A stretch of DNA of 64,000 nucleotides, from the NCBI GenBank assembly GCA_963770755.1, contig CAVYQZ010000009.1, positions 209,195-273,194 on the forward strand, in the 5' to 3' direction. This document shows, in pieces, positions 6,748 through 55,641 of this stretch. The stretch is from Candidatus Aminicenantes bacterium. Lineage in GTDB: Bacteria > Acidobacteriota > Aminicenantia > UBA2199. Made by a program: the position numbers and the translations under genes. The notes below the pieces were generated by a model that saw nothing but the letters and a program-made list of their open reading frames with translations, searched no databases and was not told the origin of the DNA. How positions within the stretch are numbered: position 1 is the first letter of the stretch; every line of letters starts with the position of its first letter.

Positions 6748-6984
6748 ATGCGCGATGTCATGACAGTCCGGGTGGAACCGGAAGTTAAAACGAGACTCGA
6801 TAAACTGGCCAAAGCGACAGCCAGAACAAAATCATTCTTGATCGCGGATGCCATTCGCGAGTATATCGAGCTCAATGAATGGCAGATCGAAGCCATCCAG
6901 GAAGGCATTCGTCAGGCGGATGCCGGGAAACTGATAGCGCATGACAAGCTAAAAAAGAAGTGGGAGCGTAAACTTGCGGATTGA
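6748..6984 (+). CDS. Ribbon-helix-helix antitoxin (ParD/CopG-like)
   Basis: 78 aa; RHH-type N-terminus; overlaps the downstream toxin gene by 11 nt. Confidence 0.75.
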   Translation: MRDVMTVRVEPEVKTRLDKLAKATARTKSFLIADAIREYIELNEWQIEAIQEGIRQADAGKLIAHDKLKKKWERKLAD

Positions 6985-7267
6985 GTGGACATTGGCCGCT
7001 GACGCTGATCTTGAAAGTATCGTCGCTTATATCACTGAAGACAATCCCCGGGCGGCGGCGGGAATAGTCATGAAGATAATCCAAATCGTGGAAGATCACC
7101 TATCGCAAACTCCAGCTATGGGCCGTCCCGGGCGAGTGCCCAAAACCCGTGAACTGATCGTCCCGGATACCCCATATATCGTGGCTTATCGGATCAAGGA
7201 TAAAAACCTGGAGATTCTCAGAGTCATTCACGGCTCCCGCAGATGGCCCGGGAAATTTAAAACATAA
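6974..7267 (+). CDS. ParE/RelE-family type II toxin
   Basis: 97 aa; ParE-like (…IVAYRIKDKNLEILRVIHGSRRW); translationally coupled to the upstream antitoxin. Confidence 0.75.
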   Translation: MRIEWTLAADADLESIVAYITEDNPRAAAGIVMKIIQIVEDHLSQTPAMGRPGRVPKTRELIVPDTPYIVAYRIKDKNLEILRVIHGSRRWPGKFKT

Positions 7268-7385
7268 AAAGCAGCATGGCCGTGCAACTCTCATGGGGAT
7301 ATAAATAGAATTATTTTTGTGCCAACCCAAAATAGACTTGACAATACATATAATTGGATATATATTTATATGTGTGAAGTGCAAG

Positions 7386-7613
7386 ATGAGCCGTCCGAAA
7401 GTTATTTTCACCCTTGATCAGGCTATCATCGACGAACTCAATACCGTCTCCGCCGAACTCAAGGAAAAGAAGAGCCATATCGTGGAAAAAGCCCTGATGC
7501 TCTATTTCGATATTCTGGACATCCGGATCGCCGATAAAAGGATGAGTGACGTCAAAAAAGGTAAGTCCAAGCTGCTCCCCGCTGAAGACGTTTATAAAGA
7601 ACTCGGGCTGTGA
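7386..7613 (+). CDS. Antitoxin of the second TA pair (RHH/RelB-like)
   Basis: Small protein (MSRPKVIFTLDQAIIDELN...); its stop overlaps the toxin start (GTGA). Confidence 0.6.
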   Translation: MSRPKVIFTLDQAIIDELNTVSAELKEKKSHIVEKALMLYFDILDIRIADKRMSDVKKGKSKLLPAEDVYKELGL

Positions 7614-7879
7614 GATATAATGTTTTTTACGAAGAGAGAGCCGCAAAGGAACTGGCCAGGATAGACAGGCCCTACCAACTGTTGATCAAAAAGATATTTG
7701 AGCAGTTGGCGGCTGATTTCGAGTCCATGTCCGGGAACCTGAAGCTGCTGAAGGGAAAATACGACTTTTTCCGGCTGCAGGTGGGCAGCTACCGCGTGAT
7801 ATTCCATAAAGACGCCAAAAAGATCATGATCACCATCGTCCGCATTGGCCAGCGCCGGGAAGTCTATAAAGATTTGTAA
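7610..7879 (+). CDS. RelE/StbE-family mRNA interferase toxin
   Basis: 89 aa; the C-terminus (YRVIFHKDAKKIMITIVRIGQRREVYK) is typical of RelE. Confidence 0.75.
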   Translation: MRYNVFYEERAAKELARIDRPYQLLIKKIFEQLAADFESMSGNLKLLKGKYDFFRLQVGSYRVIFHKDAKKIMITIVRIGQRREVYKDL

Positions 7880-7911
7880 ATTTCGACAGCTAAAGTAAAT
7901 AGTTTTTTCCC

Positions 7912-8838
7912 TTATTTTTTTCTTTCTAATACATCAAATCCAGATATTACGGCGTCAGAAATAAAATCCTGCAATAAACTGGAATCTCCCGTCATTTGAA
8001 ATTTATTAAGATATTTAATGTATAAAGGTTTTTTTTCCTGCAAAATCAGCGCTGGAGGGATATTTTTTTGCAGAAGCATGATCTGAATCAGAAGTCTGCC
8101 AATTCTGCCATTTCCATCAGAAAAAGGATGGATTTGTTCAAAGCGTCCATGAATTTCAGAAACATGGGCAATTATGTCTTTGCCGGGAGCATTTACATTT
8201 TTTATTAATTCTTTCAACAAGACGGGAATTTTCAAATAATTCGCGGTTGGAACGTAGGAGCCCAATATTCTTACTCCGTGATTACGGTAGGCACCGGCAT
8301 CCTCGCGAATGCTATTCATTAAAATGGCATGCAATTTTAAAACTAATCCTTCGTTTATTTTATTTTTATCAAGAACCCAAGTAAATAAATAGCGCAGCGC
8401 GGATTGATGATTTTTGGCCTCCAATTGTTCGGTTAAGCTTCTATGCGGCGGGGAAACATTTTCGAAAAGTATTCCAGCCGTTTCGTCTTCGGTCAGGGTG
8501 CTGCCTTCAATCCGATTTGTGTTGTAAGTTAAGGATAAAACAAATCGTTTGTGAATATCAGGATTGCTTAAAATTTCTTTCACAATGCCAGGATGTTTTT
8601 GACTTTTTATGGCGACGACTTCTTTTTTGGCTTGCAGTAAAGTATCCGGAATAATCTTTATTCCGGCATATTGGGAATACAATTCATTTATGGCATCTTG
8701 CTTCTTTTTTCGCGGCAGGGATTTTTCATTAATCCAGCTATTCAGGGTTGCAAAAGATACTTCCAGTTGTCTGGATATTTTTTCCTGGGTTAGTCCGGAA
8801 ATTTGCTGGATAAGTTTTAATTTTTCTGATATTTCCAT
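7912..8838 (-). CDS. Fic/Doc family protein (AMPylase-type) with an N-terminal HTH
   Basis: Canonical Fic motif HPFSDGNGRIGR; XRE-like HTH at the N-terminus (ISGLTQEKISRQLEVSFATLNSWIN); AT-rich gene. Confidence 0.85.
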   Translation of the reverse strand: MEISEKLKLIQQISGLTQEKISRQLEVSFATLNSWINEKSLPRKKKQDAINELYSQYAGIKIIPDTLLQAKKEVVAIKSQKHPGIVKEILSNPDIHKRFVLSLTYNTNRIEGSTLTEDETAGILFENVSPPHRSLTEQLEAKNHQSALRYLFTWVLDKNKINEGLVLKLHAILMNSIREDAGAYRNHGVRILGSYVPTANYLKIPVLLKELIKNVNAPGKDIIAHVSEIHGRFEQIHPFSDGNGRIGRLLIQIMLLQKNIPPALILQEKKPLYIKYLNKFQMTGDSSLLQDFISDAVISGFDVLERKK

Positions 8839-21781: not shown

Positions 21782-21783
21782 CA

Positions 21784-22075
21784 TACTTTCACTATGATTT
21801 CAACTAGTCTCTAAGTTGTTGAAATCATCTAGTGAAAGTATACCATCACTTGATGTTTTCAGCGGCTTTCTATGCATGCTGAAAACATAGTGATGGTAGA
21901 CGAATCAGATCCGCCTAAGTCGGCGGATGATTTGTGCTGCCCCTCTCTTTGGAAGAGAGGGGTTGGGGTGAGTTATGTGTTCTCCAACTCATTTCCCGGG
22001 CAGGGTCTTTCCATCACTGGATGTTTTTGACGGATTGATTGTATTGTCAAAAACATAGTGCTGGTAGACAAATCA
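21784..22075. repeat. Cluster of REP/BIME-like bulged hairpin elements: hairpins at 21784-21840 (inverted orientation), 21843-21896 and 22010-22064; each of the latter two is followed by GGTAGAC(G/A)AATCAG; three short GC hairpins lie between
   Basis: Imperfect ~55-nt palindromes whose arms carry CACTNGATG on one side and CATAGTG on the other, leaving an asymmetric 2-nt bulge. Hairpins 1b and 1c differ by compensatory stem changes (CAGC/GCTG versus TGAC/GTCA). Confidence 0.8.
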
Positions 22076-22113: not shown

Positions 22114-22491
22114 TTATTTACGGGCGGCGGTCCAGGTGCCCGAGACCCCGCCGGTGCTGGTAAAGGTGCCGGAAATGGTGTCCTCGCTGCTGAACGAACC
22201 GCTCAGCGTCTCGGAGCCGCCGGGAACGCTGCCGATGAGCTGGATGGTCACATTCTTTTCCGAGACGGTGTAGGAACCGCTGCCGTTGTGGCCGAGATTG
22301 TCGATATACTGGGCGGAGCCGGTTTCCACCGACCCACTACAGGTCAGGACGGCAGTGCCGTTGCCATCGCCGCTGATTGCGAAGCTGACATCCCAGGTTC
22401 CGGAAATAAAATAATCCCCACCGGCCAGGCAGCCGGAGGTGCTGCCAAGCAGCCAGGCCAACAGGCCCCCAATCAGAAATGCGTGCTTCAT
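22114..22491 (-). CDS. Small secreted Gly/Ser/Thr-rich lipoprotein
   Basis: Signal peptide with a lipobox-like STSGC; no domain match. Confidence 0.5.
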   Translation of the reverse strand: MKHAFLIGGLLAWLLGSTSGCLAGGDYFISGTWDVSFAISGDGNGTAVLTCSGSVETGSAQYIDNLGHNGSGSYTVSEKNVTIQLIGSVPGGSETLSGSFSSEDTISGTFTSTGGVSGTWTAARK

Positions 22492-22800: not shown

Positions 22801-23220
22801 TTAGCGATTCGAGCTATTTCTCTTGTTTCTTGATATTTCCCAAAATTCCCTGGGCGTTAGAATTGCTATTGATTCGATTTTTTTCAATACCAAAAGATCC
22901 TTGTCACCAGTGATAATGAAATCGACTCCGGCGTTAACAGCCAAGCCCAATATTTTATCATCTTCACGATCACGGCATACATTTTTCTTTAATTTTTTTG
23001 CATCAGCAATCAGACAAAACTCTTTCAAGAACGATAAAATCGCCTGAATTTTATCCTGAGGCATTTTGAGTTTCTTCGAAAAGTTTTTTTCAAGTTCCCC
23101 GAGAATATGATCGCTTAAAACAATGGTATGCTGCTGCAAACAAAATTCGAAAATGGAATCGGCCAAACCATGAGTCGCGAATGCCGAAAAAATAACGTTG
23201 GTATCAAAAACAAGTTTCAT
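22801..23220 (-). CDS. PIN-domain toxin (VapC-like)
   Basis: MKLVFDTNVIFSA...D-rich PIN acidic residues; overlaps the upstream RHH gene. Confidence 0.75.
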   Translation of the reverse strand: MKLVFDTNVIFSAFATHGLADSIFEFCLQQHTIVLSDHILGELEKNFSKKLKMPQDKIQAILSFLKEFCLIADAKKLKKNVCRDREDDKILGLAVNAGVDFIITGDKDLLVLKKIESIAILTPREFWEISRNKRNSSNR

Positions 23221-23435
23221 GAAATATCTTTGTAAACATCCTCGTCAGTCAATATCCCCCGGGCTTCGGCAAAAGGCAAAACCATATTTCTGAGCTGGCG
23301 GAAGCGGTAGACGGCAATGTATTTTTGCAACGACTCCCTGACCAGATCGCTCAGTGGTTTGCCTTCTTTTTTGCTTATGGCCTTGAGATTTTTCCTTATA
23401 TCATCGGGAATTCTTATACTAATTGACTGGTTCAT
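23217..23435 (-). CDS. RHH/CopG-type antitoxin (VapB-like)
   Basis: 72 aa; RHH N-terminus (ISIRIPDDIRKNLKAISKKEGKPLSDLVRESL); 4-nt overlap with the PIN gene. Confidence 0.7.
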   Translation of the reverse strand: MNQSISIRIPDDIRKNLKAISKKEGKPLSDLVRESLQKYIAVYRFRQLRNMVLPFAEARGILTDEDVYKDIS

Positions 23436-23525
23436 GCCATGCCTCCACGTAATACATTGTAATGCGTGTTTTTTGAAATGTCAACTTCGCCAAGGTGAGG
23501 GATTGATTTATATATCCCCAAGGGT

Positions 23526-23640
23526 ACCAACATATGTTTTTGGCAATATCGGTAAGCACCAAAAACATCTAGTGTTGGTATAGCCATACTAGATGGTTTC
23601 AGCGACTAATAGACTTGCTGAAACCATAGTATGGCTATAT
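23526..23640. repeat. Two bulged hairpin elements of the same family as 21784-22075 (23526-23580 and 23584-23640)
   Basis: GCCATACTAGATGGTTTCAGC...GCTGAAACCATAGTATGGC shows the same CTAGATG/CATAG asymmetry and the same TTTCAGC/GCTGAAA inner stem as hairpin 21843-21896. Confidence 0.75.
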
Positions 23641-26378: not shown

Positions 26379-27667
26379 CCGCCTTGGCTGGGGCTGTCGT
26401 CAATGAGAAGGCGCTGCAAAGGCGCGTCAAGGACCATGTCATCGGCAGCCGCCACGAGTTTTTTGCCGTGGTTCATCCGGGTTTTGAAGCGGCGGCCGGA
26501 CGGGAACTGCGCGACCTGGGCATCAGAGACATCCAGTCCCCGACCACGGGCGGCATCACCTTTGCGGCGAAGCTGAACGACGGCTACCGGGTGAATTTGG
26601 CTTGCGGCACGATCAGCCGCCTGCTGCTGCGCCTGGGCCATTTCAAAGCCCAAAGCTTCAGTGAATTCAACGAAAAAATGGCCGCTTTGCCCTGGGAGCT
26701 GTATCTTAGTGACAAGACCGTTGTCCGCTTTACCGTCAGCGCCGGCCGCTCCCGCTTATGGCACAGCGGCCGCCTGGCCGCGGAAAGCCTGGCGGCCGTC
26801 ACAGCCAGGCTGGCACTATACGGCCGGCAGGTTTTTCATGCCGCGCCAGGGTCCGCTGCGGCCGACGGCCCTGAACAGGCTGTTTTCATTCGCTTCGACC
26901 GCGACCGCTGCCAGGTCAGCCTCGACAGCAGCGGCGAACTCCTGTACAAGCGCGGCTACGACAAGTACAGCGCCGCGGCACCGCTCAGGGAAACCCTGGC
27001 CTGCGCCATTCTGAAAACCGCGGTTATCGAGCGCTACCAGGTTCTGCTCGACCCTTTCTGCGGCTCGGGCACCTTCGGACTGGAAGCCGGGCTGATCTTT
27101 TCGGGACGGCCCGCCAACCTGAACCGGTCTTTCGCCTTTGAGAACTGGCCTTCGTTCCGCCCGGCCGCCTACGCGCACCTTAAGGCGCAATGGGAGATTG
27201 AGTGCAGACAGCGCATGCAGCCGGCAATGAAAAAAATATACTGCTCCGACATCGCGGCCAGGGCTGTGCGCACCACGACCCGCAATATGGAGGTCATGGG
27301 ACTGGGTTCATTGCTCCAGATCAGTCACGGCGATTTTTTCAAACTGCCCCGGCCCGAAACAGACCCGGCCGAGGTGCTGCTGGTCCTGAACCCGCCTTAC
27401 GGCAACCGCCTGGGGAGCCGCGACGACACCGTCACGCTCTACCGCCGCATCGGGGCCAAGATCCGCGGCGATTTTGCCGGCTGCGGCTATGCCGTCATCG
27501 TGCCGGGACTGGAATTGGAAAAAGTCCTTTCCCTGCCTTACGACAAAAAAATCCTCTTCCGCAACGGCGGCATCCCGGTATCGGTTCTGATTCATCACAG
27601 CAAATCAATCATTGACAAGAAAGAAAAAGATGTAGGGGCGCGGTTCTCGCGCCCAGGGCTGTCATAA
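26375..27667 (+). CDS. THUMP-domain class I SAM-dependent RNA methyltransferase (RlmL/Trm14-like, COG0116)
   Basis: DPFCGSGT and LNPPYGNRLG motifs; ATGA start/stop overlap with the helicase gene. Confidence 0.8.
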   Translation: MTALAGAVVNEKALQRRVKDHVIGSRHEFFAVVHPGFEAAAGRELRDLGIRDIQSPTTGGITFAAKLNDGYRVNLACGTISRLLLRLGHFKAQSFSEFNEKMAALPWELYLSDKTVVRFTVSAGRSRLWHSGRLAAESLAAVTARLALYGRQVFHAAPGSAAADGPEQAVFIRFDRDRCQVSLDSSGELLYKRGYDKYSAAAPLRETLACAILKTAVIERYQVLLDPFCGSGTFGLEAGLIFSGRPANLNRSFAFENWPSFRPAAYAHLKAQWEIECRQRMQPAMKKIYCSDIAARAVRTTTRNMEVMGLGSLLQISHGDFFKLPRPETDPAEVLLVLNPPYGNRLGSRDDTVTLYRRIGAKIRGDFAGCGYAVIVPGLELEKVLSLPYDKKILFRNGGIPVSVLIHHSKSIIDKKEKDVGARFSRPGLS

Positions 27668-27745
27668 TGCTACGAGGGGCGGGAAAACCCCACCCCTACA
27701 AAAGAATATTTCATCAAAACACGATCTTATGTTATATTGCGACAA

Positions 27746-44641: not shown

Positions 44642-44882
44642 TTATTCTCCTTCCATAGTGCAACGATCTGAAATTCAACAAGCAGGACCGCCATCGGTTT
44701 GAAAGGCGATTACAGGCCGCTGAAACGGTTCAAAAAAGCGACCACGACGCTGTGTCGGCTGTGGGTCATCATGGATCCATTGTACCCCGGGAGGAAAAAG
44801 TTGTAAACATCCGGCCCGCGAGCTTTCTGCGTTGACGGCAATGACGAAATATAATACAATAGCCCTTTCCTTCAACCCGCGG

Positions 44883-44956
44883 GCCGAAGTAGCTCAGTTG
44901 GTAGAGCAATTGATTCGTAATCAATAGGTCGGGAGTTCAAATCTCCCCTTCGGCTT
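44883..44956 (+). tRNA. tRNA-Thr (anticodon CGU)
   Basis: Cloverleaf: acceptor GCCGAAG/CTTCGGC, D-arm GCTCAGTTGGTAGAGC, anticodon loop TTCGTAA, T-arm GGGAGTTCAAATCTCCC; CCA not encoded. Confidence 0.85.
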
Positions 44957-45027
44957 CTTCCCATCAGGGTTTACCTCAAGTGTACTTCAACTATTCAGAT
45001 GACAATCCCCTATTTCACAGGATTTCT

Positions 45028-45588
45028 TTATTCGTCAACAGTCAGGTTCCCAGCCCTGCAACCTCTCCTCGGTAAAAGACCTCGCTCCAGCAAGACATGC
45101 GCAATGGCGTCTCGATAAGCCGAATATAGTTTATCAGGTAGGTCAATATAAAGTTTGTCAAGTCCTTTTCCATCCCCCTTGAAGCCCTTTCGTATCTCTT
45201 CATCGGATAAATCTTTCAGGGCAACTCGCATCTCGGCTAAGTTTTTTTCATTGTAAGGGGACTGAATATTTTTTAGGGCATCCTCCCGAGAGAAATGAAA
45301 TATTCTGTCTTTCTGAGATAATGCAAACTCTAAAACCTTGCGGATACCTGCATCTTCATAAGAAATTTGCAACTCTCGATGAATCGCGCCAAGAAGAAAA
45401 GGAGCCACTGTGCAAATCAACCGTGTTTCTTTTGTCCAATCGTTTACGACCGTGATGAGAACATAGTTTGGTGCAGTCGAATTATTTTCAATGGCTCTCA
45501 CATAGAGTTCGTAAGCATCGGGTTCAGCAGCATTCGCATATACTGACATCAGAATCAGAATCCCAATGCTGATTCTTATTCTATTCAT
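45028..45588 (-). CDS. Hypothetical secreted protein (AT-rich island)
   Basis: Signal peptide (MNRIRISIGILILMSVYANA) preceded by a GGAGG RBS; no domain recognised. Confidence 0.5.
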   Translation of the reverse strand: MNRIRISIGILILMSVYANAAEPDAYELYVRAIENNSTAPNYVLITVVNDWTKETRLICTVAPFLLGAIHRELQISYEDAGIRKVLEFALSQKDRIFHFSREDALKNIQSPYNEKNLAEMRVALKDLSDEEIRKGFKGDGKGLDKLYIDLPDKLYSAYRDAIAHVLLERGLLPRRGCRAGNLTVDE

Positions 45589-45725
45589 TTTATTCCTCCA
45601 CCCATTCCAATTCATCAAGCAGAACAAATTCACCGCCGCAATCACACTTATAATTTTTATCTCTATTTTTTTCTTTCGCACGTTTCAAACATATCATAAC
45701 CTCTGGTCCGGAAAAAATACGACGT

Positions 45726-45992
45726 TTAAAAAACAATTTGTCCTGCATAAATCACAAAAAATGTAAGCAATCCAAACCAAAAGGCTTCCAACAATCCATA
45801 TTCTAAAAATGCCCCCCAAGTTATTGGGTCAAACCAAGCAATAGCAATTTTACTAAAACCAATTTTTATTTTAATAGCCCCAACAATAAAAATCAAGCCA
45901 GCAAAAATGAATGGCCGCCAAATTTTCTTGTAAGCATTCTTTTTACTTTGTCTAATTTTCTTTACTTCTTCTTCATTCTTGTATTTCCACAT
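45726..45992 (-). CDS. Small hypothetical membrane protein
   Basis: 88 aa with two predicted TM helices. Confidence 0.35.
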   Translation of the reverse strand: MWKYKNEEEVKKIRQSKKNAYKKIWRPFIFAGLIFIVGAIKIKIGFSKIAIAWFDPITWGAFLEYGLLEAFWFGLLTFFVIYAGQIVF

Positions 45993-46168
45993 ACTTCCCC
46001 CACTTATGGAAAATCACCAACCACAATCATTCTGAGGTTCTTGCCCTGAGATGTCAAACTTGGCTGCAATTGAAGCAGGTGATTACTGTAGCGGAAAGAG
46101 GTCGAAAAACGTCGTTTATACCATTGAAAGCATGAACTAATAAGGGTTTCCGTTGTTTAGTCTATTTG

Positions 46169-46440
46169 TTCGTAATCAATAGGTCGGGATATTGCCACTT
46201 TGATTTTTCGAGGACTAGGATTTCTGGAAAATCAACTAGTGGCAATATGGCACTCTGATTTTCAAAGGATTTTTAGATCTGGAAAATCAGCTAGTGCCAA
46301 TATACCATCACTGGATGCGTTTCCAGCTTTCCGAACTTGGAAACGCATAGTGATGGTAACACTAGATGCGTTTCTGATTTACCGGCTGTGAAACGCATAG
46401 TGTTGCTATTCAAATCTCCCCTTCGGCTTCTCTTTCCCAC
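46169..46440 (+). repeat. Direct repeat of the 3' portion of tRNA-Thr (46169-46189 and 46409-46440), interrupted by four bulged hairpin elements (46190-46408) of the 21784/23526 family
   Basis: ttcgtaatcaataggtcggga and ttcaaatctccccttcggcttc match the tRNA at 44883-44956. Between them lie four ~50-nt palindromes of the same bulged-hairpin family; the two most distal carry CACTNGATG…CATAGTG-type arms. Confidence 0.8.
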
Positions 46441-46897
46441 CTTGCTTTTCCATTATCCATCAATGTTTTCGATGTTTTTCATATCTGTGACCATGAGTGA
46501 CTGGAACTACCCGAAACACCCCAAAATTGAGAATAACATAACACAATTTTGACACAGTGAAATTTCGGATTTAACGATTAGAAAGTGAAGCTCATGAAAA
46601 AGTCTTTTAAATCAGGCTAAGCAGATCGTCCTTGTTGAGAGCGGGCTATTCGCCGATGGTGACCGTTTTCTGGCAAGCGTCGCTGCCGTTGCTGTTAAAT
46701 AATACAAAATCCCCCATTATTAATTTGTCCCTGTACGACCGCTGTATACATGCAATAAATCTTAATTAAATCAACACTCATTTCCAGTTCCAAACAAATA
46801 ATGTCACATAATTCTCTATTTTAATTTACTCATTTTATTGATAAAGATAGCAAAACCGAACAGCTTTTCAGAAAAGCATACGGTCAAGGGAGAGAAC

Positions 46898-47251
46898 ATG
46901 GCTGATAACGTGCAATTTAGTTTAAGCGGCAAGGCCGAGAAATACCAAGGAGAAATCACCGGGAGCGGGAGCTTAAAATTAGAAACTGATGCCGCTTCAT
47001 TTTGCTTCAAAATGGATTACAAATCCAAGGACAAAGTGATCCTCACCCTTTCCGGAACACAGGGAATAACTTTATCAGCCAGCAGCAAGCTGAAATTTTC
47101 GGAAAGCATTGCCAAGAATCTGATCAACAACACATGGGAGGGGAAATACACCATTAAGCTTGAGATAAACAAGACAATTGCAGCCCAGCTCAACCAGGAA
47201 TTTTTAAAAGCCGGTCCGAAAACCAGCGCCGAGATCATTATAAAATTTTAA
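46898..47251 (+). CDS. Hypothetical protein
   Basis: ATG at 46898 with an AAGGGAGAG RBS; AT-rich island. Confidence 0.4.
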   Translation: MADNVQFSLSGKAEKYQGEITGSGSLKLETDAASFCFKMDYKSKDKVILTLSGTQGITLSASSKLKFSESIAKNLINNTWEGKYTIKLEINKTIAAQLNQEFLKAGPKTSAEIIIKF

Positions 47252-47284
47252 AATGAAGATTTCGATTACACGTAAGGGGGAATC

Positions 47285-48065
47285 ATGTCAGTAAAAATAC
47301 ATAACAAAATGCCGTTAATGCTTGCGCTAATTTTCCTGATTACCTGGCCGGGAAGTATTTTATGCTTCTCTTCCGGGCAAAGTGAATATGTCCCGGATAA
47401 AGAATTGACGGCAAAACTGAATGAATTCAGGTTCCTGCGCGAAAACGACCATTTCATTGAACGCCCTGCAGAAGGGATATGACGCGGTCCACAACGAAAA
47501 CATTTTCGCCAACGCCAATTATGGCGCGCAGGAATCGCTGATCTTCGAGGTGGCGATCTTCCATCTGGAATATATCGACAAAATCAGAAATGCTGACCAA
47601 GCCAGGCGTTGCGCCGAAAAAGCGGCCGCCTTATGGAATAAATATATTAATTGGTTTTCCCAACTATCGGAAGAGCAGCGCTCATCCATGCATGGATCCC
47701 ATATCCGCATCTACATGGCGGTTGTCCATCTGGGCAATTCACTACTTCGCCAAGGTGATCTTTCTCAGTTATTTGACTGCTATGCAAACATGGCCGCCGA
47801 CAACCTGCATTATTTTGGCACAACTGCAATGTCGGTATGGAAGAAAGGTCTCTACGGCTGTCCGGATGGAAATTTATCAAGACCTCATACGGAAACCAAT
47901 AGAAGAAACAGCATTAAGCATGGCTGTGATGAACATTGGAATAATTATGCGGCAACCCTCGGGGATTGGCTCCTGATCGCGCCGCTGCAAAACAGCGCCA
48001 AAATCGCCTATGGGCGAGAAATCGAACAAATTGCAAGAGAAATTAAAAATCTCGGCGGTGAATGA
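47285..48065 (+). CDS. Hypothetical protein with an N-terminal lipoprotein-like signal; two overlapping frames (47285..47482 and 47421..48065) suggest a frameshift
   Basis: A signal-peptide ORF and a 214-aa ORF overlap out of frame. Confidence 0.35.
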
Positions 48066-48089
48066 TGAAATCTTTGCTTGCGGCATTGA

Positions 48090-48749
48090 GTGTCTGTCTT
48101 TTTATTCCATTTCATGGCTCACGCGCAGAATCCGGCGGACAGCGCGGCCCAAGGCGAAGCCCTGAAGTATTTGTACGTGCAACCCGAAATCAAGGTAAAT
48201 GTTCAGCAGACGGACCGGGTAATCACCAGTCCGTTGTGCATTTCGGCGCACATCACCAACCTGACCGACTCCAACATGTCGCTGGTCGGGGCGCAGGTCG
48301 ATTTTCCGGAAATGGACATCGGCAGGGAGACGGGCAATCCCGTCGACCTTGTTTTCAGCAACACTGAAGACCTGGATTCGGGCAGCGCTATCATCGGCAA
48401 GGCCCGCTTCGCTGCCGCGAAATCTCACTGGTATTTCCCATTTTCAAATCCGAGACTGCTTTTTTTCAAGCCCGCCGAATACGAGGCCAGGGTCATCATC
48501 ACCTACAAGGTGTTTGACCGCAACCAAACCATGATCGAGGAAAAAGTGAAGGTCACGTTGGAGCCGCCGCTCAGTTCGATATTGTGGGGCAGCATTCTGG
48601 GCTCACTGCTTCTGGCCCTTTACATCGCCCTGTATAAGCGCAGTAAGGAAAACCTGCCCTGGAAAACAACGTTGTCCCGTTTCGCTGCGGTTTCCCTGAC
48701 CGGGATCGTCAGCGCCAGAGAGCCTCCAGGGGTCAGGTCTCAATTGTAA
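48090..48749 (+). CDS. Hypothetical protein with a C-terminal TM anchor
   Basis: 219-aa ORF. The alternative upstream frame (48062..) encodes a signal peptide, so a frameshift is possible. Confidence 0.4.
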   Translation: MSVFLFHFMAHAQNPADSAAQGEALKYLYVQPEIKVNVQQTDRVITSPLCISAHITNLTDSNMSLVGAQVDFPEMDIGRETGNPVDLVFSNTEDLDSGSAIIGKARFAAAKSHWYFPFSNPRLLFFKPAEYEARVIITYKVFDRNQTMIEEKVKVTLEPPLSSILWGSILGSLLLALYIALYKRSKENLPWKTTLSRFAAVSLTGIVSAREPPGVRSQL

Positions 48750-48802
48750 AGTTATCACGATTGGTTTATGCCTCAGGCATCAGCCAGCGGACAGGCAAGG
48801 CC

Positions 48803-49912
48803 TCAAGGAATTCTATTGATTTGCGCAATGCACGTCAGTTTCGTCTGACGGTCATAATATATTAGTTGATCTCCCTGTGGACTCCAACCCTGAACCTCTT
48901 CAATGCTGTTATCCGAGTTGGTCAACTGTGCATAGTTTCCATTTCTGTTGATTAAATAAATATCGGACTTGGTGAGTTTATAAGTATGTTCATCAACCTC
49001 ACCATATGATACGGCTAACAGATTTCCATTTGGGGCCAAGTAACTAGTCTTTATATAAAAAAATTCATTTTTTCTTCCTATGGGAAGGTTAGGGAATTTA
49101 TTAATTATTTTAAATACAACCATTCCGTCTTTGTCGATAAACACGTAATTTTTATCTTTTTGAATAGCTACCAACAAATCTTTGTTGCTTTTCAGCGGAA
49201 ATAATTTGACATTATATGTTTTCTCGAAATAGAGTTGAGTAGCGGTTTTAGCGGCGACGTTTATTTTCAGTAACGTTTTTCCTTTAAATATCAGAGAATT
49301 ACTTGGAATAAAATATCCCGCGAGAATTGCAGCGGTATCAGTAACCGAATAAACGTCTTCAGAGATTTTTGTATTAATTTTGTAAGCAAATATCTTCGAT
49401 TCCTTGTAATAATAAAATGTATCCCCTTCTGAATTGAAACACAGTAAAGACTTTATTCCTTTCCTGCCAAGATTTATTTCAAATAATAATTTTTCTGCGC
49501 CGACGATATCGCAAAGAAGAACTTTTTTATCTTTATCAACTATTACAACTTTTTTGGAATCCGGAGCCCACCACTTTGAATAACCTTCAAATTCCCGTAT
49601 CTTTTCCCCTTTTTTATTGAAAATAAATGTTTTCAATACCATATCCTTTTTTTCAGGAAGCATTTTAATAAAATCATCTCTATTCATACAAAAATAACTC
49701 GCAAGGATTTCATCTTCGTTCGAGGCACTGAAATACTCCCCATCTGGCGACCATGCCTTGAACATGTATCCATCAGGAATAGCAATCTCTTTTATGCCGG
49801 GAATCCTGATTTTTGCCGGATCATCCCCGACATCCAGATATTGCGCAAACAGATTACCTACGGCCGTCCCCAGAAATAATATTACCAGAACCGTAATTAT
49901 TGTTTTCTTCAT
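48803..49912 (-). CDS. Secreted beta-propeller (PD40/TolB-like repeat) protein, paralog 1
   Basis: Signal peptide (MKKTIITVLVILFLGTAVGNLFAQ); WSPDG / WSPQGD / LAPNGNLLA propeller-blade motifs. Confidence 0.6.
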   Translation of the reverse strand: MKKTIITVLVILFLGTAVGNLFAQYLDVGDDPAKIRIPGIKEIAIPDGYMFKAWSPDGEYFSASNEDEILASYFCMNRDDFIKMLPEKKDMVLKTFIFNKKGEKIREFEGYSKWWAPDSKKVVIVDKDKKVLLCDIVGAEKLLFEINLGRKGIKSLLCFNSEGDTFYYYKESKIFAYKINTKISEDVYSVTDTAAILAGYFIPSNSLIFKGKTLLKINVAAKTATQLYFEKTYNVKLFPLKSNKDLLVAIQKDKNYVFIDKDGMVVFKIINKFPNLPIGRKNEFFYIKTSYLAPNGNLLAVSYGEVDEHTYKLTKSDIYLINRNGNYAQLTNSDNSIEEVQGWSPQGDQLIYYDRQTKLTCIAQINRIP

Positions 49913-49959
49913 CGCCAATCCTTTAATTTGTTTTGCGCAGGTAAACAATTAAATCACCA

Positions 49960-51006
49960 TTAAGCAAGCGATCGCCTTGAGGGCTCCATTTTGTGGGAAG
50001 AAGTGGGATAAGGTATAGCAAAACGAACGTATTTTCCTTGAAAATTAAATAAATAAACTTCATCCGTTGAATTGCCAGTTTGGTCTCCAGATTCTGCCAT
50101 TCTTAAGAAAATTAGTTTTCCATTGGGAGCCAAAGCCCAATCAGATTTGTCTTCACCTGGAATTAAATCGGCGCAATCACCATTAGGTTTTGGTCCACCA
50201 CGATCAATAAATGCTCGGAAATTTCCTAGCACTGTTCCATTGTCTTCATACAAATATACCGTGTCCCAACCATTGCTTACCGCAAAAACCTGACGACCAT
50301 CATGTAAACATAAATATTTTGGTACTCCAATACCAGACGGAGTTATCGCAACAAATTGTCCAGTTAAAAAATTGTATCTTATTAGCTTAAAACTATCTTC
50401 CAATATCCATAAAAGTGTCTTTTCTTTGTTTAAATAACGATGAGCTCCGTGTTCAAAGGAAACTATCGCTTTTACATCTATTGTTCCCAATTCCTGTCTT
50501 ATACCTGTCTTCGGAGTTAAAGAAACAAACCTATATCTGGATTTTCGTGCCACAACTATAATCTGCTTTAAAAGAATATCACCTTGAGGAGATACGTCAA
50601 TAAATTGTTCTTTTTGAGGATCGACCGAAAGTATTATCTCTTGCTTGGCTTGAAGGTCATAGATTGCATAGAAGTGTTTTTTACCTTCCCAGAAATAGTA
50701 AAAGATCCGTTTGTTGTCGGGGAATATTGTGGTTTGATCAAAATTAAATTTCCTGGGAAGCTTTTGCAAGAAATTCCCGTCCTTGTCCATGATAAGCCAG
50801 CCTTCTTTGCTGCCACCAAGATACCATTCCCCGTCATGAGACCAGGCATATCCCCCAACCGGTTTGCCGTTATAAATAATATTTTTTGTTGATGCGATTT
50901 CAATTTTCGCCGGATCATCACCAACATCCAGGTATTGCGCCAGAAGATTGTCTGCAGCTGCCCCCAGAAACAATGCTACCAGAACCGTAATTATTGTTTT
51001 CTTCAT
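49960..51006 (-). CDS. Secreted beta-propeller protein, paralog 2
   Basis: N-terminal ~50 aa almost identical to the neighbours (AQYLDVGDDPAKIEIASTKNIIYNGKPVGGYAWSHDGEW). Confidence 0.6.
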   Translation of the reverse strand: MKKTIITVLVALFLGAAADNLLAQYLDVGDDPAKIEIASTKNIIYNGKPVGGYAWSHDGEWYLGGSKEGWLIMDKDGNFLQKLPRKFNFDQTTIFPDNKRIFYYFWEGKKHFYAIYDLQAKQEIILSVDPQKEQFIDVSPQGDILLKQIIVVARKSRYRFVSLTPKTGIRQELGTIDVKAIVSFEHGAHRYLNKEKTLLWILEDSFKLIRYNFLTGQFVAITPSGIGVPKYLCLHDGRQVFAVSNGWDTVYLYEDNGTVLGNFRAFIDRGGPKPNGDCADLIPGEDKSDWALAPNGKLIFLRMAESGDQTGNSTDEVYLFNFQGKYVRFAIPYPTSSHKMEPSRRSLA

Positions 51007-51152
51007 CGCCAATCCTTCAATTTTTTTTCCGTAGGTATACAATCAAGTCGCCATTGAGCATGCGGTCACCTTTGGGACTCCATTCTACGGAAGAAGGATA
51101 AGGTAAAGGAAAACGAACACTTTTGCCCTTAAAATTAAATAAGTACACCTCA

Positions 51153-52093
51153 TCAGCTCTGATTATCACCCTCACCGCTGCGTCTCATCATGCAAAACAA
51201 AATCAATTTGCCATTTGGAGCCAATGCTCGAAAAGCACGACTATCTCCAGGGATCAAATCTGGATTTATGCCATATACATCGGGTTCTCCTCGATCGAAA
51301 AGTGCGCTGAATTTCCCAAGCAAAGCTCCACCAGCTTCAAATAAATAGACCATATCATCAAATGTAGTAACTATAACCTGGCGACCATCCCGCAATTTTG
51401 AATAGGATGGTTCACCAATTTCAAAAGGAGTGATATTAAAGACTCATTTTTATAGAAATCATATTTTTTAATTTTAAATCCGCTATCTGATATTATCAAT
51501 AGGAAATTCCTTTTATCTAAATAGCGATTATCACCATATTGATAACTAAGGTTTACTTCAATTATTCCCAGATCTTGCCGCGAACCATTCTCGGGGTTAT
51601 AAGAAATAAATGAATATTTACTCTTTCGTGCCACCACAATAATCTGCATAAATAAAATATCCCCTTGTGGCGACACATCTATAAAACGTTCATTTTGCGG
51701 GTCAATTGTTAAAACTGTTTCCTGTTTGGTCTGCAGGTTGTATATTGCATAATAGTCCTTCTTGCTATTGATATCTTCAAACTCATAAAAAATTCTTTTA
51801 CTGTCAGAAAATATTGTGACTTGATAATAATTGAACTTCCTAGGCAGCTTCTGCAGGAAATTCCCGTTCTTGTCCATGATATACCCGCCATCATTGTTTG
51901 CTCCCAGAAACCACTCCCCATCATGAGACCAGGCATATCCCCCAACCGGTTTGCCATTATAAATAATATTTTTTGTTGATGCGATTTCAATTTTTGCCGG
52001 ATCATCCCCCACATCCAGGTATTGCGCAAACAGATTGCCTACGGCCGTCCCCAGAAATAATATTACCAGAATCGTAATTATTGTTTTCTTCAT
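51153..52093 (-). pseudogene. Secreted beta-propeller protein, paralog 3, disrupted by a frameshift/truncation
   Basis: N-terminal 252-aa ORF and a C-terminal 80-aa ORF are in different frames. Confidence 0.55.
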
Positions 52094-52103
52094 CGCCAAT
52101 CCT

Positions 52104-53175
52104 TTAATTTGTTTTTCGCAGGTATACAATCAAGTCGCCATTGAGCATGCGGTCACCCTGGGGGCTCCATTTTGGGGAAGAAGTGGGATAAGGTATAGCA
52201 AAACGAACGTATTTTCCTTGAAAATTAAACAAATAAACTTCATCTGATGAATTGCCAGTTTGGTCTCCAGATTCTGCCATTCTTAAGAAAATTAGTTTTC
52301 CATTGGGAGCCAAAGCTCGATCAGAATTGCTGTAACCCGGGATTAAATCTGCGCAATTGCCATTTTCTTCTGTTCCACCACGGTCAAAAAATGCCCAAAA
52401 TTTCCCTAACAATACACCACCTGCTTCGTACAAATAGACTGTATCCCAAAATGTTGCCACTACAACATGACGGCCGTCATGCAGTTGCGAATAAGTTGGC
52501 GAACTGGTGCGGTGAGAAGTTATATTGGCAAGTTTTTTTTCGATGAAATCATATTTTTTTAATTTATATCCATTATCAGATACTCTCAACAATAGATTTT
52601 CTTTATTCAAAAAACGATTATTGCCGTATTCATAACTAAGGTCTGCATCAATTATTCCTAAATCTTGTTGCGAACTATTCTCCGGATTTAAAGGAAAAAA
52701 ATGAATAAGTTATCTTTCTTGCGACAACAATAATTTGCATTAATAAAATATCCCCCTGCGGTGAGACATCGATAAAATGTTCTTTTGGGGGATCTATTGA
52801 CAAAATTGTTTCCTGTTTTGTTTCCCGGTTGTAAATTGCATAATAATCTTTCTTATTTTCCCAGAAACCATAAAAGATTCGTTTATTGTCAGAGAATAAT
52901 GTGACTTGACCATAATTGAATTTCCTTGGCAGCTTCTGCAGGAAATTTCCATTCTTATCCATAATATACCCGCCATCGTTGTTGGCGCCTAAAAACCATT
53001 CTCCATCATGAGACCAGGCATAGCCCCCAACCGGTTTTCCATTATAAATAATGTTTTTTGTTGATGCGATTTCAATTTTTGCCGGATCATCCCCAACATC
53101 AAAGTATTGAGCCAGGAGACCCGTCAAGGCCAGAAATAAAATAAAAACACTGAATGACAACCATTTCATTTTCAT
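52104..53175 (-). pseudogene. Secreted beta-propeller protein, paralog 4, split into N- and C-terminal halves
   Basis: ORFs 52675..53175 (signal plus N-terminal half) and 52104..52610 (C-terminal half) are homologous to the two halves of paralog 2. Confidence 0.55.
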
Positions 53176-53526
53176 CAGTTTACTCTATTTACATCCGATT
53201 TGGTATCCCTCATTTGCGAGCAGTCTCCTTACCTTCTCCGCACAAAAAATCGAAAATCGGTGTCAGGTCTTACATTATTACTTTTGCCTCTCTTTCCCAT
53301 GCTTTTTGCCGTCATTTTGATAGGCCGTTGCGGAGAAGTCTCTGCGCACAGACCTAGCGGTGAAACATCATTTCAGAACAAATGTCATAATGAAACGGGC
53401 TGTTGCCCAAACGGGCAAAATTATTTTCCCCTTCTGGCGGTTCCAGAGATAACAAGCGAATCTATTATAGAGACTTGCCCCGAAGTCTATCCCCGGGCAA
53501 CGGCAATGGCGGCCGCCATACGGGAT

Positions 53527-54818: not shown

Positions 54819-55184
54819 CTATTTCAGACTTTCGCTGAACTCGGCCCAATGTTTTTTGGTGATGCCCAGGAACAGGACCGAATCCAGTCGCGAGACGATT
54901 TGGCCCTTGGCAAAGACGATGACCGTGGGCACGGCCCGGATCGTGTATTGGTGCCAGAGCGGATTCTGCGGATCAGTGAGCGTCACATGCAGGAAATCAA
55001 AATCCTTGGCCCGCGAGCCGGCAAATTCGCTGAAACGCGGCAGGAACATCCGGCAATAGGGGCAGGTGGTCATTTCAAAGAGAACCACCGTTTTCTTTTC
55101 AGAGCTTATGTAAGGAGAAATATCGAGAGGGTCGGAATATGTCGAGATCAGGTTGCTCTCGCTTTTCTCGTTGTTTGGATTCAC
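54819..55184 (-). CDS. Thioredoxin-fold protein (CPYC active site)
   Basis: …KKTVVLFEMTTCPYCRMF… GTG start with an AGGAG RBS immediately after the upstream gene's stop. The longer ATG ORF would overlap the CGGC gene by ~100 nt. Confidence 0.6.
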   Translation of the reverse strand: MNPNNEKSESNLISTYSDPLDISPYISSEKKTVVLFEMTTCPYCRMFLPRFSEFAGSRAKDFDFLHVTLTDPQNPLWHQYTIRAVPTVIVFAKGQIVSRLDSVLFLGITKKHWAEFSESLK

Positions 55185-55197
55185 ATTGGCTCCTGAC

Positions 55198-55641
55198 TTA
55201 ATTGTAATTTTCCATGACCTTTCGGTCCTCGGCCAGCAGCCCGGCGGCGAGCTCATCCATTTTGACCTGCTTCCAGAACGGTAGTTTTTCATGGATTTCG
55301 AGATATTTCAGGGGAATGGGATGGGTGCCGATTACGACCGGCAGTTGATACGCGGTTTCGATGAATTCCTTGAACTTGCGGATGCTGGGGCAAGGAGGAT
55401 ACCCGACCACCAGCCCGGTGGCCAGGTGGATGACCTGGGCGCCGTTCTTTATCATTTCCGCCGGCACATACTCCATGTTGCCGCCCGGGCAGCCGCCGCA
55501 GTTGGCAAAGCCGACGACTTCGACGGCTTCGTCCCCGGCATAGGCTGCAAACGCCCCGGCCCGCTCACGCAATGCCCGGAAACACTTGCCGCCGCCGCAC
55601 GACAGATAGCGGCCGCAAATGATGATGCCGATCTTCTTCAT
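55198..55641 (-). CDS. CGGC-domain protein
   Basis: MKKIGIIICG…CGGC…CPGG motifs. Confidence 0.6.
   Translation of the reverse strand: MKKIGIIICGRYLSCGGGKCFRALRERAGAFAAYAGDEAVEVVGFANCGGCPGGNMEYVPAEMIKNGAQVIHLATGLVVGYPPCPSIRKFKEFIETAYQLPVVIGTHPIPLKYLEIHEKLPFWKQVKMDELAAGLLAEDRKVMENYN

Follow-up and report, generated by a model that had tools for sequence, protein, structure and literature searches.

A split, displaced tRNA-Thr 3' half and a family of bulged hairpins in Candidatus Aminicenantes

Abstract

Here we report on a 64,000-nucleotide stretch of DNA from a Candidatus Aminicenantes bacterium (GenBank assembly GCA_963770755.1, contig CAVYQZ010000009.1, positions 209,195 to 273,194; hereafter the window), in which the 3' half of a tRNA-Thr(CGT) gene recurs downstream of the gene and is itself split in two by an array of four hairpins. 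The arrangement is best explained, with a probability that we put at roughly 0.62, by two superimposed layers of mobile DNA: the scar of an integrase-mediated insertion at the tRNA gene, and mobile hairpins that were inserted into the scar separately. The hairpins are small non-autonomous palindromic repeats with an unusual affinity for tRNA-shaped DNA; the attachment (att) scar is of a textbook kind, and it is the family itself that is new. The comparative data consist of fragmentary metagenome-assembled genomes (MAGs) and metagenome contigs, whose loci are designated by L numbers, and the window genome was surveyed over its 64 kb.

The tRNA-Thr gene and its displaced 3' half

The tRNA-Thr(CGT) gene is the sole tRNA gene that ARAGORN and Rfam detect in the 64-kb window, and a promoter-like TTGACG-17-TACAAT stands directly 5' of it. 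A preliminary description of this DNA had stated that the 3' half of the gene recurs 1.2 kb downstream in two pieces. Alignment bears this out with exact matches of 21 and 23 nt, collinear and in the same orientation as the gene (Table 1). Their E-values within the window are 1.4e-6 and 9e-8 (blastn-short), and the same search returned no further significant match to the tRNA in the 64 kb. Chance similarity was considered and is ruled out by exact, collinear 21- and 23-mers with E-values of 1e-6 to 1e-7. The left piece lies where it had been placed, at 46169-46189, whereas the right piece stops at 46431 rather than at 46440.

Together the two pieces span the tRNA from loop position 32, where the anticodon loop (TTCGTAA) begins, to 2 nt beyond the discriminator base. 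A single tRNA base is absent from the displaced copy, G44935, which is G53 of the T stem, all tRNA position numbers having been taken from the cloverleaf by eye. The pieces are separated by 219 nt (46190-46408), which consist of four abutting hairpins and nothing else; the joined, empty-site form of the scar would read GGGAG followed directly by TTCAAATC.

Different states of the same site were found elsewhere. In L106 to L109, where the neighbouring saccharopine-dehydrogenase-like protein is 86% identical to that of the window, thioredoxin, CGGC, DUF3943 and CN_hydrolase genes come straight after the tRNA, and repeat, island and hairpins are all absent; these are the uninterrupted tRNA-Thr loci that were sought in relatives. 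The metagenome contig L095 carries a tRNA-Thr(CGT), an adjoining Phage_integrase gene (PF00589, 1.3e-31) and a low-GC island of ~8.7 kb, which closes with the same 3'-half repeat, here unsplit, and then with the CCCACCTTGCTTTTCC flank as in the window; it holds no hairpins. This contig was retrieved with the 21-mer of the tRNA as a metagenome query, which gave 46 loci, mostly from unrelated taxa with the same tRNA sequence and 0 with hairpins. In L037, from a LacPavin MAG, the tRNA is followed by a 390-nt islet with one small open reading frame (ORF) and then by a slightly diverged, split copy with a similar flank. Its scar reads TCGCTAG^E(-)F(+)^TTCGACTC, that is, one hairpin doublet stands exactly between G53 and T54. 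No sequence similarity was detected between the islets of the window and L037 at tRNA-Thr, and the island of L095 has no genes in common with that of the window.

Because the relatives form a series, from the empty site of L106-L109 through the integrase island of L095 and the single doublet of L037 to the four hairpins of the window, we regard the repeat, on the strength of these sequence comparisons, as a genuine attR-type scar of integrase insertion at a tRNA-Thr hot spot. An att-like repeat arising by integrase-mediated insertion at the tRNA 3' end is what the preliminary description had proposed, and it finds its support in the L095 island with the same repeat and in the empty site. The window shows a repeat of the tRNA 3' part that starts in the anticodon loop, and foreign DNA that is absent at the relatives' site; a recombinase gene beside the att site is lacking there and present in L095. 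No integrase, transposase or other recombinase was found in the 64-kb window by Pfam scans of the unassigned large ORFs or by phmmer searches with XerD, IS200 and IS608 against six-frame ORFs, in agreement with the earlier statement that none is present. Together with its presence in L095, this absence marks the window copy as a degenerate, integrase-less remnant.

Host DNA in the window has a GC content of about 58-64%, and the DNA from the tRNA to about 53.3 kb one of 35-50%. The first part of this low-GC DNA, islet 1, encodes three small ORFs on the minus strand (45028-45615, 45590-45748 and 45726-45992), with no Pfam match and no integrase among them. The right edge of the second part, island 2, was placed solely by the return to host GC near 53.3 kb, and the gene order of the window rejoins the synteny of L106 at a thioredoxin gene (54819-55292). 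The far end of island 2 was searched for a third att copy, with no more than an 11-nt match as the result, TCTCTTTCCCA, at 53289-53299 on the GC transition, which is not significant (E = 1.3). Most of island 2 is filled by an array of four or five paralogous lipoprotein genes (48803-53175, minus strand) with common signal peptides (MKKTIITVLV..AQYLDVGDDPAKIEIAS). Two of them are intact (369 and 348 aa) and the rest are fragmented; their products are probably beta-propeller-like and have no real Pfam match.

The four hairpins in the scar

Folded as single-stranded DNA, the four hairpins h1 to h4 reach -12.8 to -20.1 kcal/mol, with z-scores of -5.2 to -8.8 against shuffled sequences. The segment between the tRNA pieces had been described as ~220 bp of four hairpins of one family recognisable by CACTNGATG/CATAGTG. 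The length and the common structural family hold, whereas these literal words are absent from h1 and h2, which carry CACTAGTTG/CAAAGTG and CACTAGCTG/CAGAGTG, yet score 68.7 and 49.8 bits with the covariance model of the family.

Hairpins h1 and h3 are more distant from the hairpins of L037 than are h2 and h4, the orthologues of its E and F hairpins (Table 1). At ~90-93% identity between the window and L037, the scar hairpins are better conserved than the flank (73%). The simplest history would comprise an ancestral E/F doublet, two later single gains (at the outer foot and at the doublet centre) and small deletions (of G53 and of parts of the feet of h2 and h4). With G53 lost, the insertion in the window is imperfectly precise. 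A separate entry of the hairpins is indicated because the L037 scar is split by a single doublet and the L095 scar is unsplit.

Table 1. Coordinates of the tRNA-Thr locus, of its islands and hairpins, and of the other hairpin clusters in the window
Feature	Position	Strand	Remarks
A(-)B(+) doublet right after the stop codon of a radical-SAM gene	21783..21899		Orthologue in L115
Single hairpin hC	22009..22067	+	Covariance model
C(-)D'(+) doublet beyond a low-GC islet with a PIN/RHH toxin-antitoxin pair	23524..23638		
Intact tRNA-Thr(CGT), attL side	44882..44957	+	ARAGORN; Rfam RF00005 gives 44883-44955, 76.6 bits
Islet 1, low-GC (about 0.39) foreign DNA, 1.2 kb, between the tRNA and the displaced half	44958..46168		Absent from L106
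Displaced tRNA-Thr 3' half, left piece (from the anticodon loop to A52)	46169..46189	+	Exact match to 44914-44934, 21 nt
h1, E-like type (TATTGCCACT..AGTGGCAATA), probably a later gain	46190..46247	-	
h2, E type	46248..46302	-	Orthologue of the L037 E hairpin, 54/58 identical including the loop
h3, upper stem F-like, lower stem CCAT; probably gained later, in the middle of the old doublet	46303..46358	+	
h4, F type, left foot shortened	46359..46408	+	Orthologue of the L037 F hairpin, 51/57 identical including the loop
Displaced tRNA-Thr 3' half, right piece (from T54 to 2 nt beyond the discriminator base)	46409..46431	+	Exact match to 44936-44958, 23 nt
Flank 3' of the scar (CTTTCCCACCTTGCTTTTCC...)	46432..46480	+	83% over 48 nt to L095, 73% over 63 nt to L037
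Island 2, low-GC (0.35-0.50), unannotatable ORFs, decaying lipoprotein-gene array, no recombinase	46432..53300		

Structure and distribution of the hairpin family

The consensus of the nine copies in the window is TA-N4-CACT, a 2-nt bulge (NG), ATG-N8/9, a loop of about 12 nt, then N8/9-CAT-AGTG-N4-TA, giving a unit of ~58 nt. The conserved positions are thus the TA at the foot, CACT/AGTG, the NG bulge and ATG/CAT, with a variable base next to TA. Of the 23 pairs in the RNAalifold prediction, 13 have compensatory changes within these nine copies alone. The covariance model based on the nine finds these copies and no others in the window, in clusters at 21.78-22.07, 23.52-23.64 and 46.19-46.41 kb.

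A pattern scan of 185,579 species-representative genomes returned 58 loci, of which the covariance model confirms 45, with 118 hits. The confirmed loci come from 12 MAGs, labelled Candidatus Aminicenantes or Aminicenantia, Chrysiogenales, or Acidobacteria. All 13 pattern hits from other taxa were rejected by the model, a number close to a rough by-hand estimate of chance matches, and the family was thus seen in the Aminicenantes lineage only. In an alignment of 87 hairpins the stem cells are paired in 94% of cases, against 77% in shuffled sequences and 30-42% when the partners are slid, and double (compensatory) changes occur at 19 of the 23 pairs with almost no G-U. Covariation so nearly pure in Watson-Crick pairs is what one would expect from a DNA palindrome under constraint on both strands, and not from an RNA helix.

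The commonest unit is an inverted doublet, in which a minus-strand hairpin abuts a plus-strand hairpin at a central TA-TA junction with both bulges facing the centre. When the hairpins are typed by their variable stem segments, the partners are consistent across genomes (A+B, C+D, E+F); paralogous copies of the same type within one genome vary freely in their loops. In Rfam only the tRNA reaches the gathering score, and in E-value mode the hairpins match only generic microRNA-precursor models, far below threshold. Full-text literature searches turned up no description of a bulged-hairpin family of this kind.

Other palindromes accompany the hairpins. The doublets are often joined by short modules, among them a TCCCC-N3-5-GGGGA hairpin, a GACAAATCAGATCCGCC-loop-GGCGGATGATTTGTC hairpin and a CCCCTCTCTTTGGAAGAGAGGGG hairpin, into mosaics that resemble bacterial interspersed mosaic elements (BIMEs). 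Such modules lie at 21900-22000 of the window and in the hairpin flanks of L010, L017, L018, L027, L041, L043 and L055, and the loop of the GACAAATCAGATCCGCC...GGCGGATGATTTGTC hairpin encloses a bulged hairpin in L041, L022 and L004. Classical GTAG-headed palindromes of the repetitive extragenic palindromic (REP) type, such as TGTAGGGGCGGGTTTTAAACCCGCCCGTACA, coexist with the family at 27631-27700 of the window and at 6830-6860 of L116. In L003 and L014 a doublet lies within or beside a GTAG-headed palindrome (GTAGGGGTTCAAT and ATTGAACCCCTAC arms).

Association with tRNA sequences

The tRNA-Thr scar is not the only place where the family meets tRNA sequence. An upstream paralogue of tRNA-Ser(UGA) is split after the GG of the D-loop (GAGTGG^TCGATT) in L002, L016, L036 and L040, with decayed versions in L009, L026 and L054; in L040 a second split falls at the anticodon stem-loop junction (GCGGCGG^TCTTGAA). 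L057 has a 5' half of tRNA-Arg(CCG) that is split at CAACGG^ATAGAG. Five intact class II tRNA genes (Ser-UGA, Ser-GCU, Ser-CGA, Leu-CAG in two genomes, and Leu-UAA) have a hairpin whose TA begins at position 74, right after the discriminator base. Comparable arrangements occur at tRNA loci of other genomes, and the family returns to the same structural landmarks in different tRNA sequences, namely the D-loop GG, the anticodon stem-loop junction, G53/T54 and position 74. The preliminary description had offered two alternatives, that the hairpins target tRNA-like sequence or structure or that they colonise att scars, and both receive support, since the family splits partial copies and also abuts five intact tRNA 3' ends.

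In the 327 kb of hairpin loci, whose retrieval made no use of tRNAs, there are 18 tRNA genes against about 4.3 expected (Poisson P = 7e-7), some of them at orthologous loci, so that about eight tRNA loci are independent. Of 70 hairpin clusters, 6 lie within 12 nt of a tRNA gene end and 25 within 500 nt. Removing all hairpins in silico adds no tRNA call (18 before, 18 after), and the split copies are thus fragments or pseudogenes rather than interrupted functional genes. The pseudogene mode of ARAGORN at 80% gave noise only.

The partial copies have features of their own. At 2222-2812 of L039 a 195-nt unit, composed of a hairpin, the final 32 nt of tRNA-Leu(UAA), another hairpin and a spacer, stands twice in tandem before the real gene, an arrangement that looks like the product of unequal recombination between hairpin copies. 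The second, upstream tRNA-Ser(UGA) copy is present in seven MAGs, with its own perfect TTGACA-17-TACAAT promoter (L002 2190-2620, L009 7430-7900, L016 5715-6090, L026 3500-4040, L036 1200-1960, L040 3100-3460 and L054 500-890). Six of these seven copies bear a conserved, GC-rich insert of three hairpins, about 75 nt long, exactly inside the T loop (TTCGA^ATCC). The insert reads ccactcggc..gccgagtgg ggaccgcgagc..gcggccc gtgcgcggcagcagccgcgca and is a different element or RNA from the bulged hairpins. The L040 copy ends before the T arm, and L026 has three tandem units.

Insertion behaviour and retention

Several filled and empty sites can be compared. The tRNA-Thr scar is filled in L037 and in the window and empty of hairpins in L095. 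In L051 a D(-)C(+) doublet of 118 nt lies inside a gene of the Y1_Tnp family and frameshifts it; removal of TAGTCAC...GTTGGTA restores an uninterrupted frame of 316 codons to the contig end, with the junction FQGR^YKAII matching FQGRYRAII of L112. The spacer between the radical-SAM and helicase genes measures 74 nt in L116, an empty site, and contains the A/B doublet and modules in L115 and in the window. In L001 a C/D doublet stands within the loop of a B hairpin.

Insertion is precise, the inserted element being the unit from TA to TA. No target-site duplication was found in any of the 6 reconstructable events, and no bases are duplicated at GAGTGG^TCGATT, GCGGCGG^TCTTGAA, CAACGG^ATAGAG or CTAG^TTCGAC. 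The left flanks of the six are ACGG, GTGG, GCGG, ACGG, CTAG and GCGG, so that YGG^ precedes the insertion in five, a weaker motif than the known IS200/IS605 targets. Duplication of TA as in IS630/Tc1-type transposition was also considered and is excluded, several targets containing no TA.

Once in place, at least one doublet has changed very little. The A/B doublet at 21782-21900 of the window and at 6841-6959 of L115 is identical at 118 of 119 positions, loops included (binomial P = 9e-11 against the identity of the flanks). The genes around it are ~80% identical in DNA, and the last 120 coding bases agree at 87 of 120. The repeat module at 21897-22000 is identical to that of L115 at 95 of 104 positions, and these intergenic repeats, the doublet and its adjoining module, evolve more slowly than the surrounding coding DNA. 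Something beyond the neutral decay of a dead transposon acts here, which could be selection for a local function or self-correction of the palindrome.

Next to this doublet, the window (22114-22491, minus strand) and L115 (7372-7749, minus strand) have, between the radical-SAM and helicase genes, a gene for a 125-aa secreted protein that matches nothing in Pfam. In L116 the gene is found ~2 kb away (3873-4250, minus strand), beside a duplicated DsrE fragment and with 85% identity, its position having changed between close relatives.

Search for a mobilising enzyme

No enzyme that moves the hairpins was found among the families searched. Aminicenantes genomes contain multiple copies of a family of about 320 aa that combines Y1_Tnp with a DnaA_C-like helix-turn-helix and carries the JGI name REP element-mobilizing transposase RayT; it is similar to the REP-associated tyrosine transposases (RAYTs). 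Its genes lie at 620-1710 of L114, 380-1680 of L112, 2560-3702 of L051 and 4001-4975 of L113, and the 3' end of the L112 gene is duplicated. Terminal inverted repeats of 22 bp (GGGGTCAGGTCTCAAAAATAAA) enclose the copy in L114, a locus of the hairpin-rich ELA510 MAG, and L112 has similar inverted ends, a structure like that of an insertion sequence and unusual for a Y1/HUH enzyme. As mobiliser of the bulged hairpins this family was rejected on the three intact copies examined: they have no hairpins nearby, and the sole physical link is the L051 copy, which is disrupted by a doublet. The GTAG-headed palindromes are more likely partners of the RAYT-like protein than the bulged hairpins are.

Comparison with known systems

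The tRNA-Thr locus resembles tRNA-targeted tyrosine-recombinase islands and their integrase-less remnants, which are comparable to cis-mobilisable elements (CIMEs), in its repeat of the tRNA 3' part, in the low-GC DNA between the repeats, in the empty site of a relative and in the integrase island at the same tRNA of another relative. It differs in that no integrase is present, the islet is only 1.2 kb long and the scar is broken by 219 nt of hairpins.

For the hairpins themselves the closest analogues are REP sequences, BIMEs and the paired REP hairpins called REPINs: all are short imperfect palindromes, non-autonomous, retained, numerous in each genome and mostly extragenic, which form inverted pairs and mosaics. 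The bulged hairpins differ by their longer unit (about 58 nt), their fixed 2-nt bulge and the joining of two cognate types without a spacer. A GTAG or CGTC tetranucleotide at the end is the defining feature of REPs (PMC3733652). Such an end tag is absent from the conserved positions of the bulged hairpins, and no cognate RAYT gene flanked by them was found among the three RAYT-like loci examined.

With the attC sites of integrons the hairpins share conservation of structure over sequence, a variable terminal loop and insertion beside G, and their 2-nt NG bulge, always on the same arm, is analogous to the extrahelical bases of attC. Unlike attC sites they have no AAC/GTT R box or G^TT point, no IntI or attI and no arrays of cassettes in the same orientation, and they form back-to-back inverted doublets. 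The palindrome-associated transposable elements (PATEs) of the IS200/IS605 group likewise insert without target duplication and next to a short motif, a weaker one in the bulged hairpins, which suggests recognition of a hairpin on single-stranded DNA; here, by contrast, the end hairpins are mutually inverted and no IS200/IS605 TnpA occurs in 0.33 Mb of hairpin loci. The lack of a target-site duplication also sets the family apart from classical miniature inverted-repeat transposable elements.

Rickettsia palindromic elements are small palindromic repeats that insert precisely into genes, RNA genes included, and persist there. Their insertions into ORFs are in frame and tolerated, whereas the L051 insertion causes a frameshift and the tRNA hits described here lie in copies or past the gene end; there is no similarity to the bulged hairpins in sequence or structure. 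Archaeal tRNAs contain introns at non-canonical positions. The inserts described here are like these bulge-helix-bulge introns in being found at the D-loop, the anticodon loop and the T-arm and in leaving collinear tRNA sequence when removed. They differ in having no bulge-helix-bulge motif, the insert ends being non-complementary, in their bacterial host, in residing in fragments and not in genes, and in their DNA-type covariation.

Proposed explanation and alternatives

In the explanation that we prefer, of two superimposed layers of mobile DNA, tRNA-Thr(CGT) serves islands with tyrosine recombinases as an integration hot spot in this Aminicenantes clade. Recombination at the anticodon-loop region would have rebuilt tRNA-Thr from an incoming element and left the original 3' half behind as an attR-type scar, which extends from position 32 to just beyond the 3' end and now lies 1.2 kb downstream. 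The DNA between the tRNA and the scar was presumably replaced or eroded later, and the integrase lost. An E/F doublet would then have entered between G53 and T54 in an ancestor common to the window lineage and L037, after which the window lineage probably gained h1 and h3 and lost G53. We infer an enzyme that acts in trans and a single-stranded substrate; the tRNA association may reflect true targeting, or else the survival of insertions in dispensable tRNA-like DNA alone. Such an enzyme would recognise the folded, bulged hairpin on DNA, probably single-stranded, as HUH transposases or integron integrases do, with a weak preference for cutting after (Y)GG, and tRNA genes in single-stranded form would offer G-rich stem-loop junctions of this kind. 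The insertions seen today would be survivors in dispensable scars, in pseudo-copies or at the first base past a tRNA, and the inserted hairpins may then be kept by selection, as REPs and BIMEs are thought to be.

Several observations weigh against this explanation. Paralogous copies differ in their loops, where recent copy-and-paste would give identical ones, and neither polymorphism of empty and filled sites within a population nor an excision product was seen that would show current activity. No protein family recurs beside the hairpins, all-against-all clustering of 1379 ORFs from the hairpin loci yielding orthologous flank genes only; XerD, IS200 and IS608 queries had no matches in the hairpin loci (0.33 Mb) or in the window. 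Around the intact RAYT-like genes of L112, L113 and L114, the three loci examined, hairpins are absent within 1-4 kb. A general rule of insertion into hairpin apices was rejected when the joined flanks of 69 clusters were compared with 1500 random sites (p = 0.38), the clearly nested cases being few (L019, L024, L041, L004, L022 and L001). Partial tRNA copies only about 50-200 nt from their gene, as in L057 and L039, are hard to explain by integrated elements. The order of events at the scar may also have been the reverse, with a hairpin entering a live tRNA gene that was later rescued by an island. Finally, the near-perfect conservation of the A/B doublet points to a host function, which a purely selfish model leaves unexplained.

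The alternatives that we considered differ in the part they assign to the hairpins. In one, the doublets are recombination sites of an integron-like cassette-capture system with a recombinase acting in trans, and the hairpins in the scar are its working site and not passengers. Like attC, they conserve structure rather than sequence and keep extrahelical bases always on one arm. All three clusters in the window edge low-GC islets (the islet with the PIN/RHH pair and the 125-aa gene at 22.1-23.5 kb, and the boundary of islet 1 and island 2), the islet content of the window and L037 is wholly different despite an orthologous scar and doublet, the 125-aa gene stands at a different place in L116, and the window has no integrase. 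We nevertheless hold this to be unlikely: no IntI-like or other recombinase was found near any hairpin locus and no AAC/GTT R-box triplets are present, the doublets are inverted with nothing between them and occur in mixed orientations instead of forming a same-orientation series that separates ORFs, they sit inside an ORF and inside tRNA fragments without an attached cassette, and the moved 125-aa gene of L116 has no hairpins. A further alternative dispenses with the integrase and derives the partial tRNA copy from local rearrangement associated with the hairpins, through unequal recombination or template switching. Hairpin-rich genomes do have many partial tRNA copies near their gene, among them the tRNA-Arg 5' half of L057, about 190 nt upstream with only about 50 nt of unique DNA between, the 195-nt tandem tRNA-Leu units of L039 and the upstream tRNA-Ser(UGA) copies of 7 MAGs, and here too the lack of an integrase in the window fits. 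What makes it quite improbable for tRNA-Thr is that the repeat has the classical limits of an integrase identity block, from the anticodon loop to just past the 3' end, that the DNA between the repeats is compositionally foreign and absent from L106, and that in L095 the same block bounds a Phage_integrase island without any hairpins, which largely refutes rearrangement at this locus.

Two other alternatives concern the nature of the hairpin block. If the hairpins acted at the RNA level, in processing, in termination or as intron-like inserts, the split copies would be functional genes. The start of hairpins exactly at position 74 of five tRNA genes, where 3' processing takes place, would agree with this, as would the perfect promoters of the upstream tRNA-Ser copies, the strong conservation of one doublet in situ, and positions in the D-loop, the anticodon stem-loop and the T-arm that recall the non-canonical introns of archaeal tRNAs. 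Against it, in-silico removal of the hairpins yields no extra tRNA gene (18 and 18), the split copies are truncated or have further lesions in the anticodon arm, the insert ends cannot pair into a bulge-helix-bulge, hardly any G-U appears in an almost purely Watson-Crick covariation, Rfam gives only sub-threshold matches to generic microRNA-precursor models, and the same elements frameshift a protein-coding gene in L051; we consider a role in RNA very improbable. We give hardly any credence to an arrival of the hairpin block with the island, as an arm of the att region and never as a separate insertion. Several tRNA genes do have hairpins directly past their 3' end, the point at which an integrated element's arm would begin; in the scar, however, the block lies inside tRNA-derived sequence, flanked left and right by tRNA bases in register, L095 has this scar in unsplit form, many sites outside tRNAs and islands carry identical element types, and no attP or circular form with tRNA positions 32-52, hairpins and 54-76 was seen.

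An extension of the two-layer explanation, bolder and in our judgement doubtful, is that the doublets are a new kind of structure-guided mobile DNA or recombination site, which an enzyme homes to landmarks of the tRNA (after G18G19 of the D-loop, at the anticodon stem-loop junction, at G53/T54 and at the base after the discriminator). They would then be a DNA-level bacterial counterpart of mobile tRNA introns, might double as a site for the turnover of integrase-less cassettes beside tRNA genes, and would be kept by the host for a function of their own, given that one doublet is 99% conserved between flanks of about 80%.

Other features of the window

The low-GC islet between two of the hairpin clusters encodes a PIN protein (PF13470) and a ribbon-helix-helix (RHH) protein (PF12651) at 22801-23435 on the minus strand. 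Two further RHH-like ORFs and a Fic/DOC protein lie at 6748-8838 in another low-GC segment (6.7-8.9 kb, GC 0.37-0.45), with no hairpins of the bulged family nearby. An intergenic region at 703-830 contains 7-nt repeats, GTGAAAA/GTAAAAA, that face their reverse complement, TTTTCAC/TTTTTAC, in arms of 34 nt which are 82-91% complementary.

Conclusions

For the annotation of Aminicenantes MAGs the hairpins have practical consequences, as repeats of this kind break assemblies and pseudo-tRNA fragments can mislead. If the hairpins are retained by the host, as the conservation of 118 of 119 positions suggests, they would provide a new test case, in an uncultured phylum, for selfish palindromes that turn functional. 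If the association with tRNAs is real targeting, it could help to explain why tRNA genes gather mobile DNA, and the family would be, to our knowledge, the first case of a small, non-autonomous DNA element of bacteria homing to tRNA structure.

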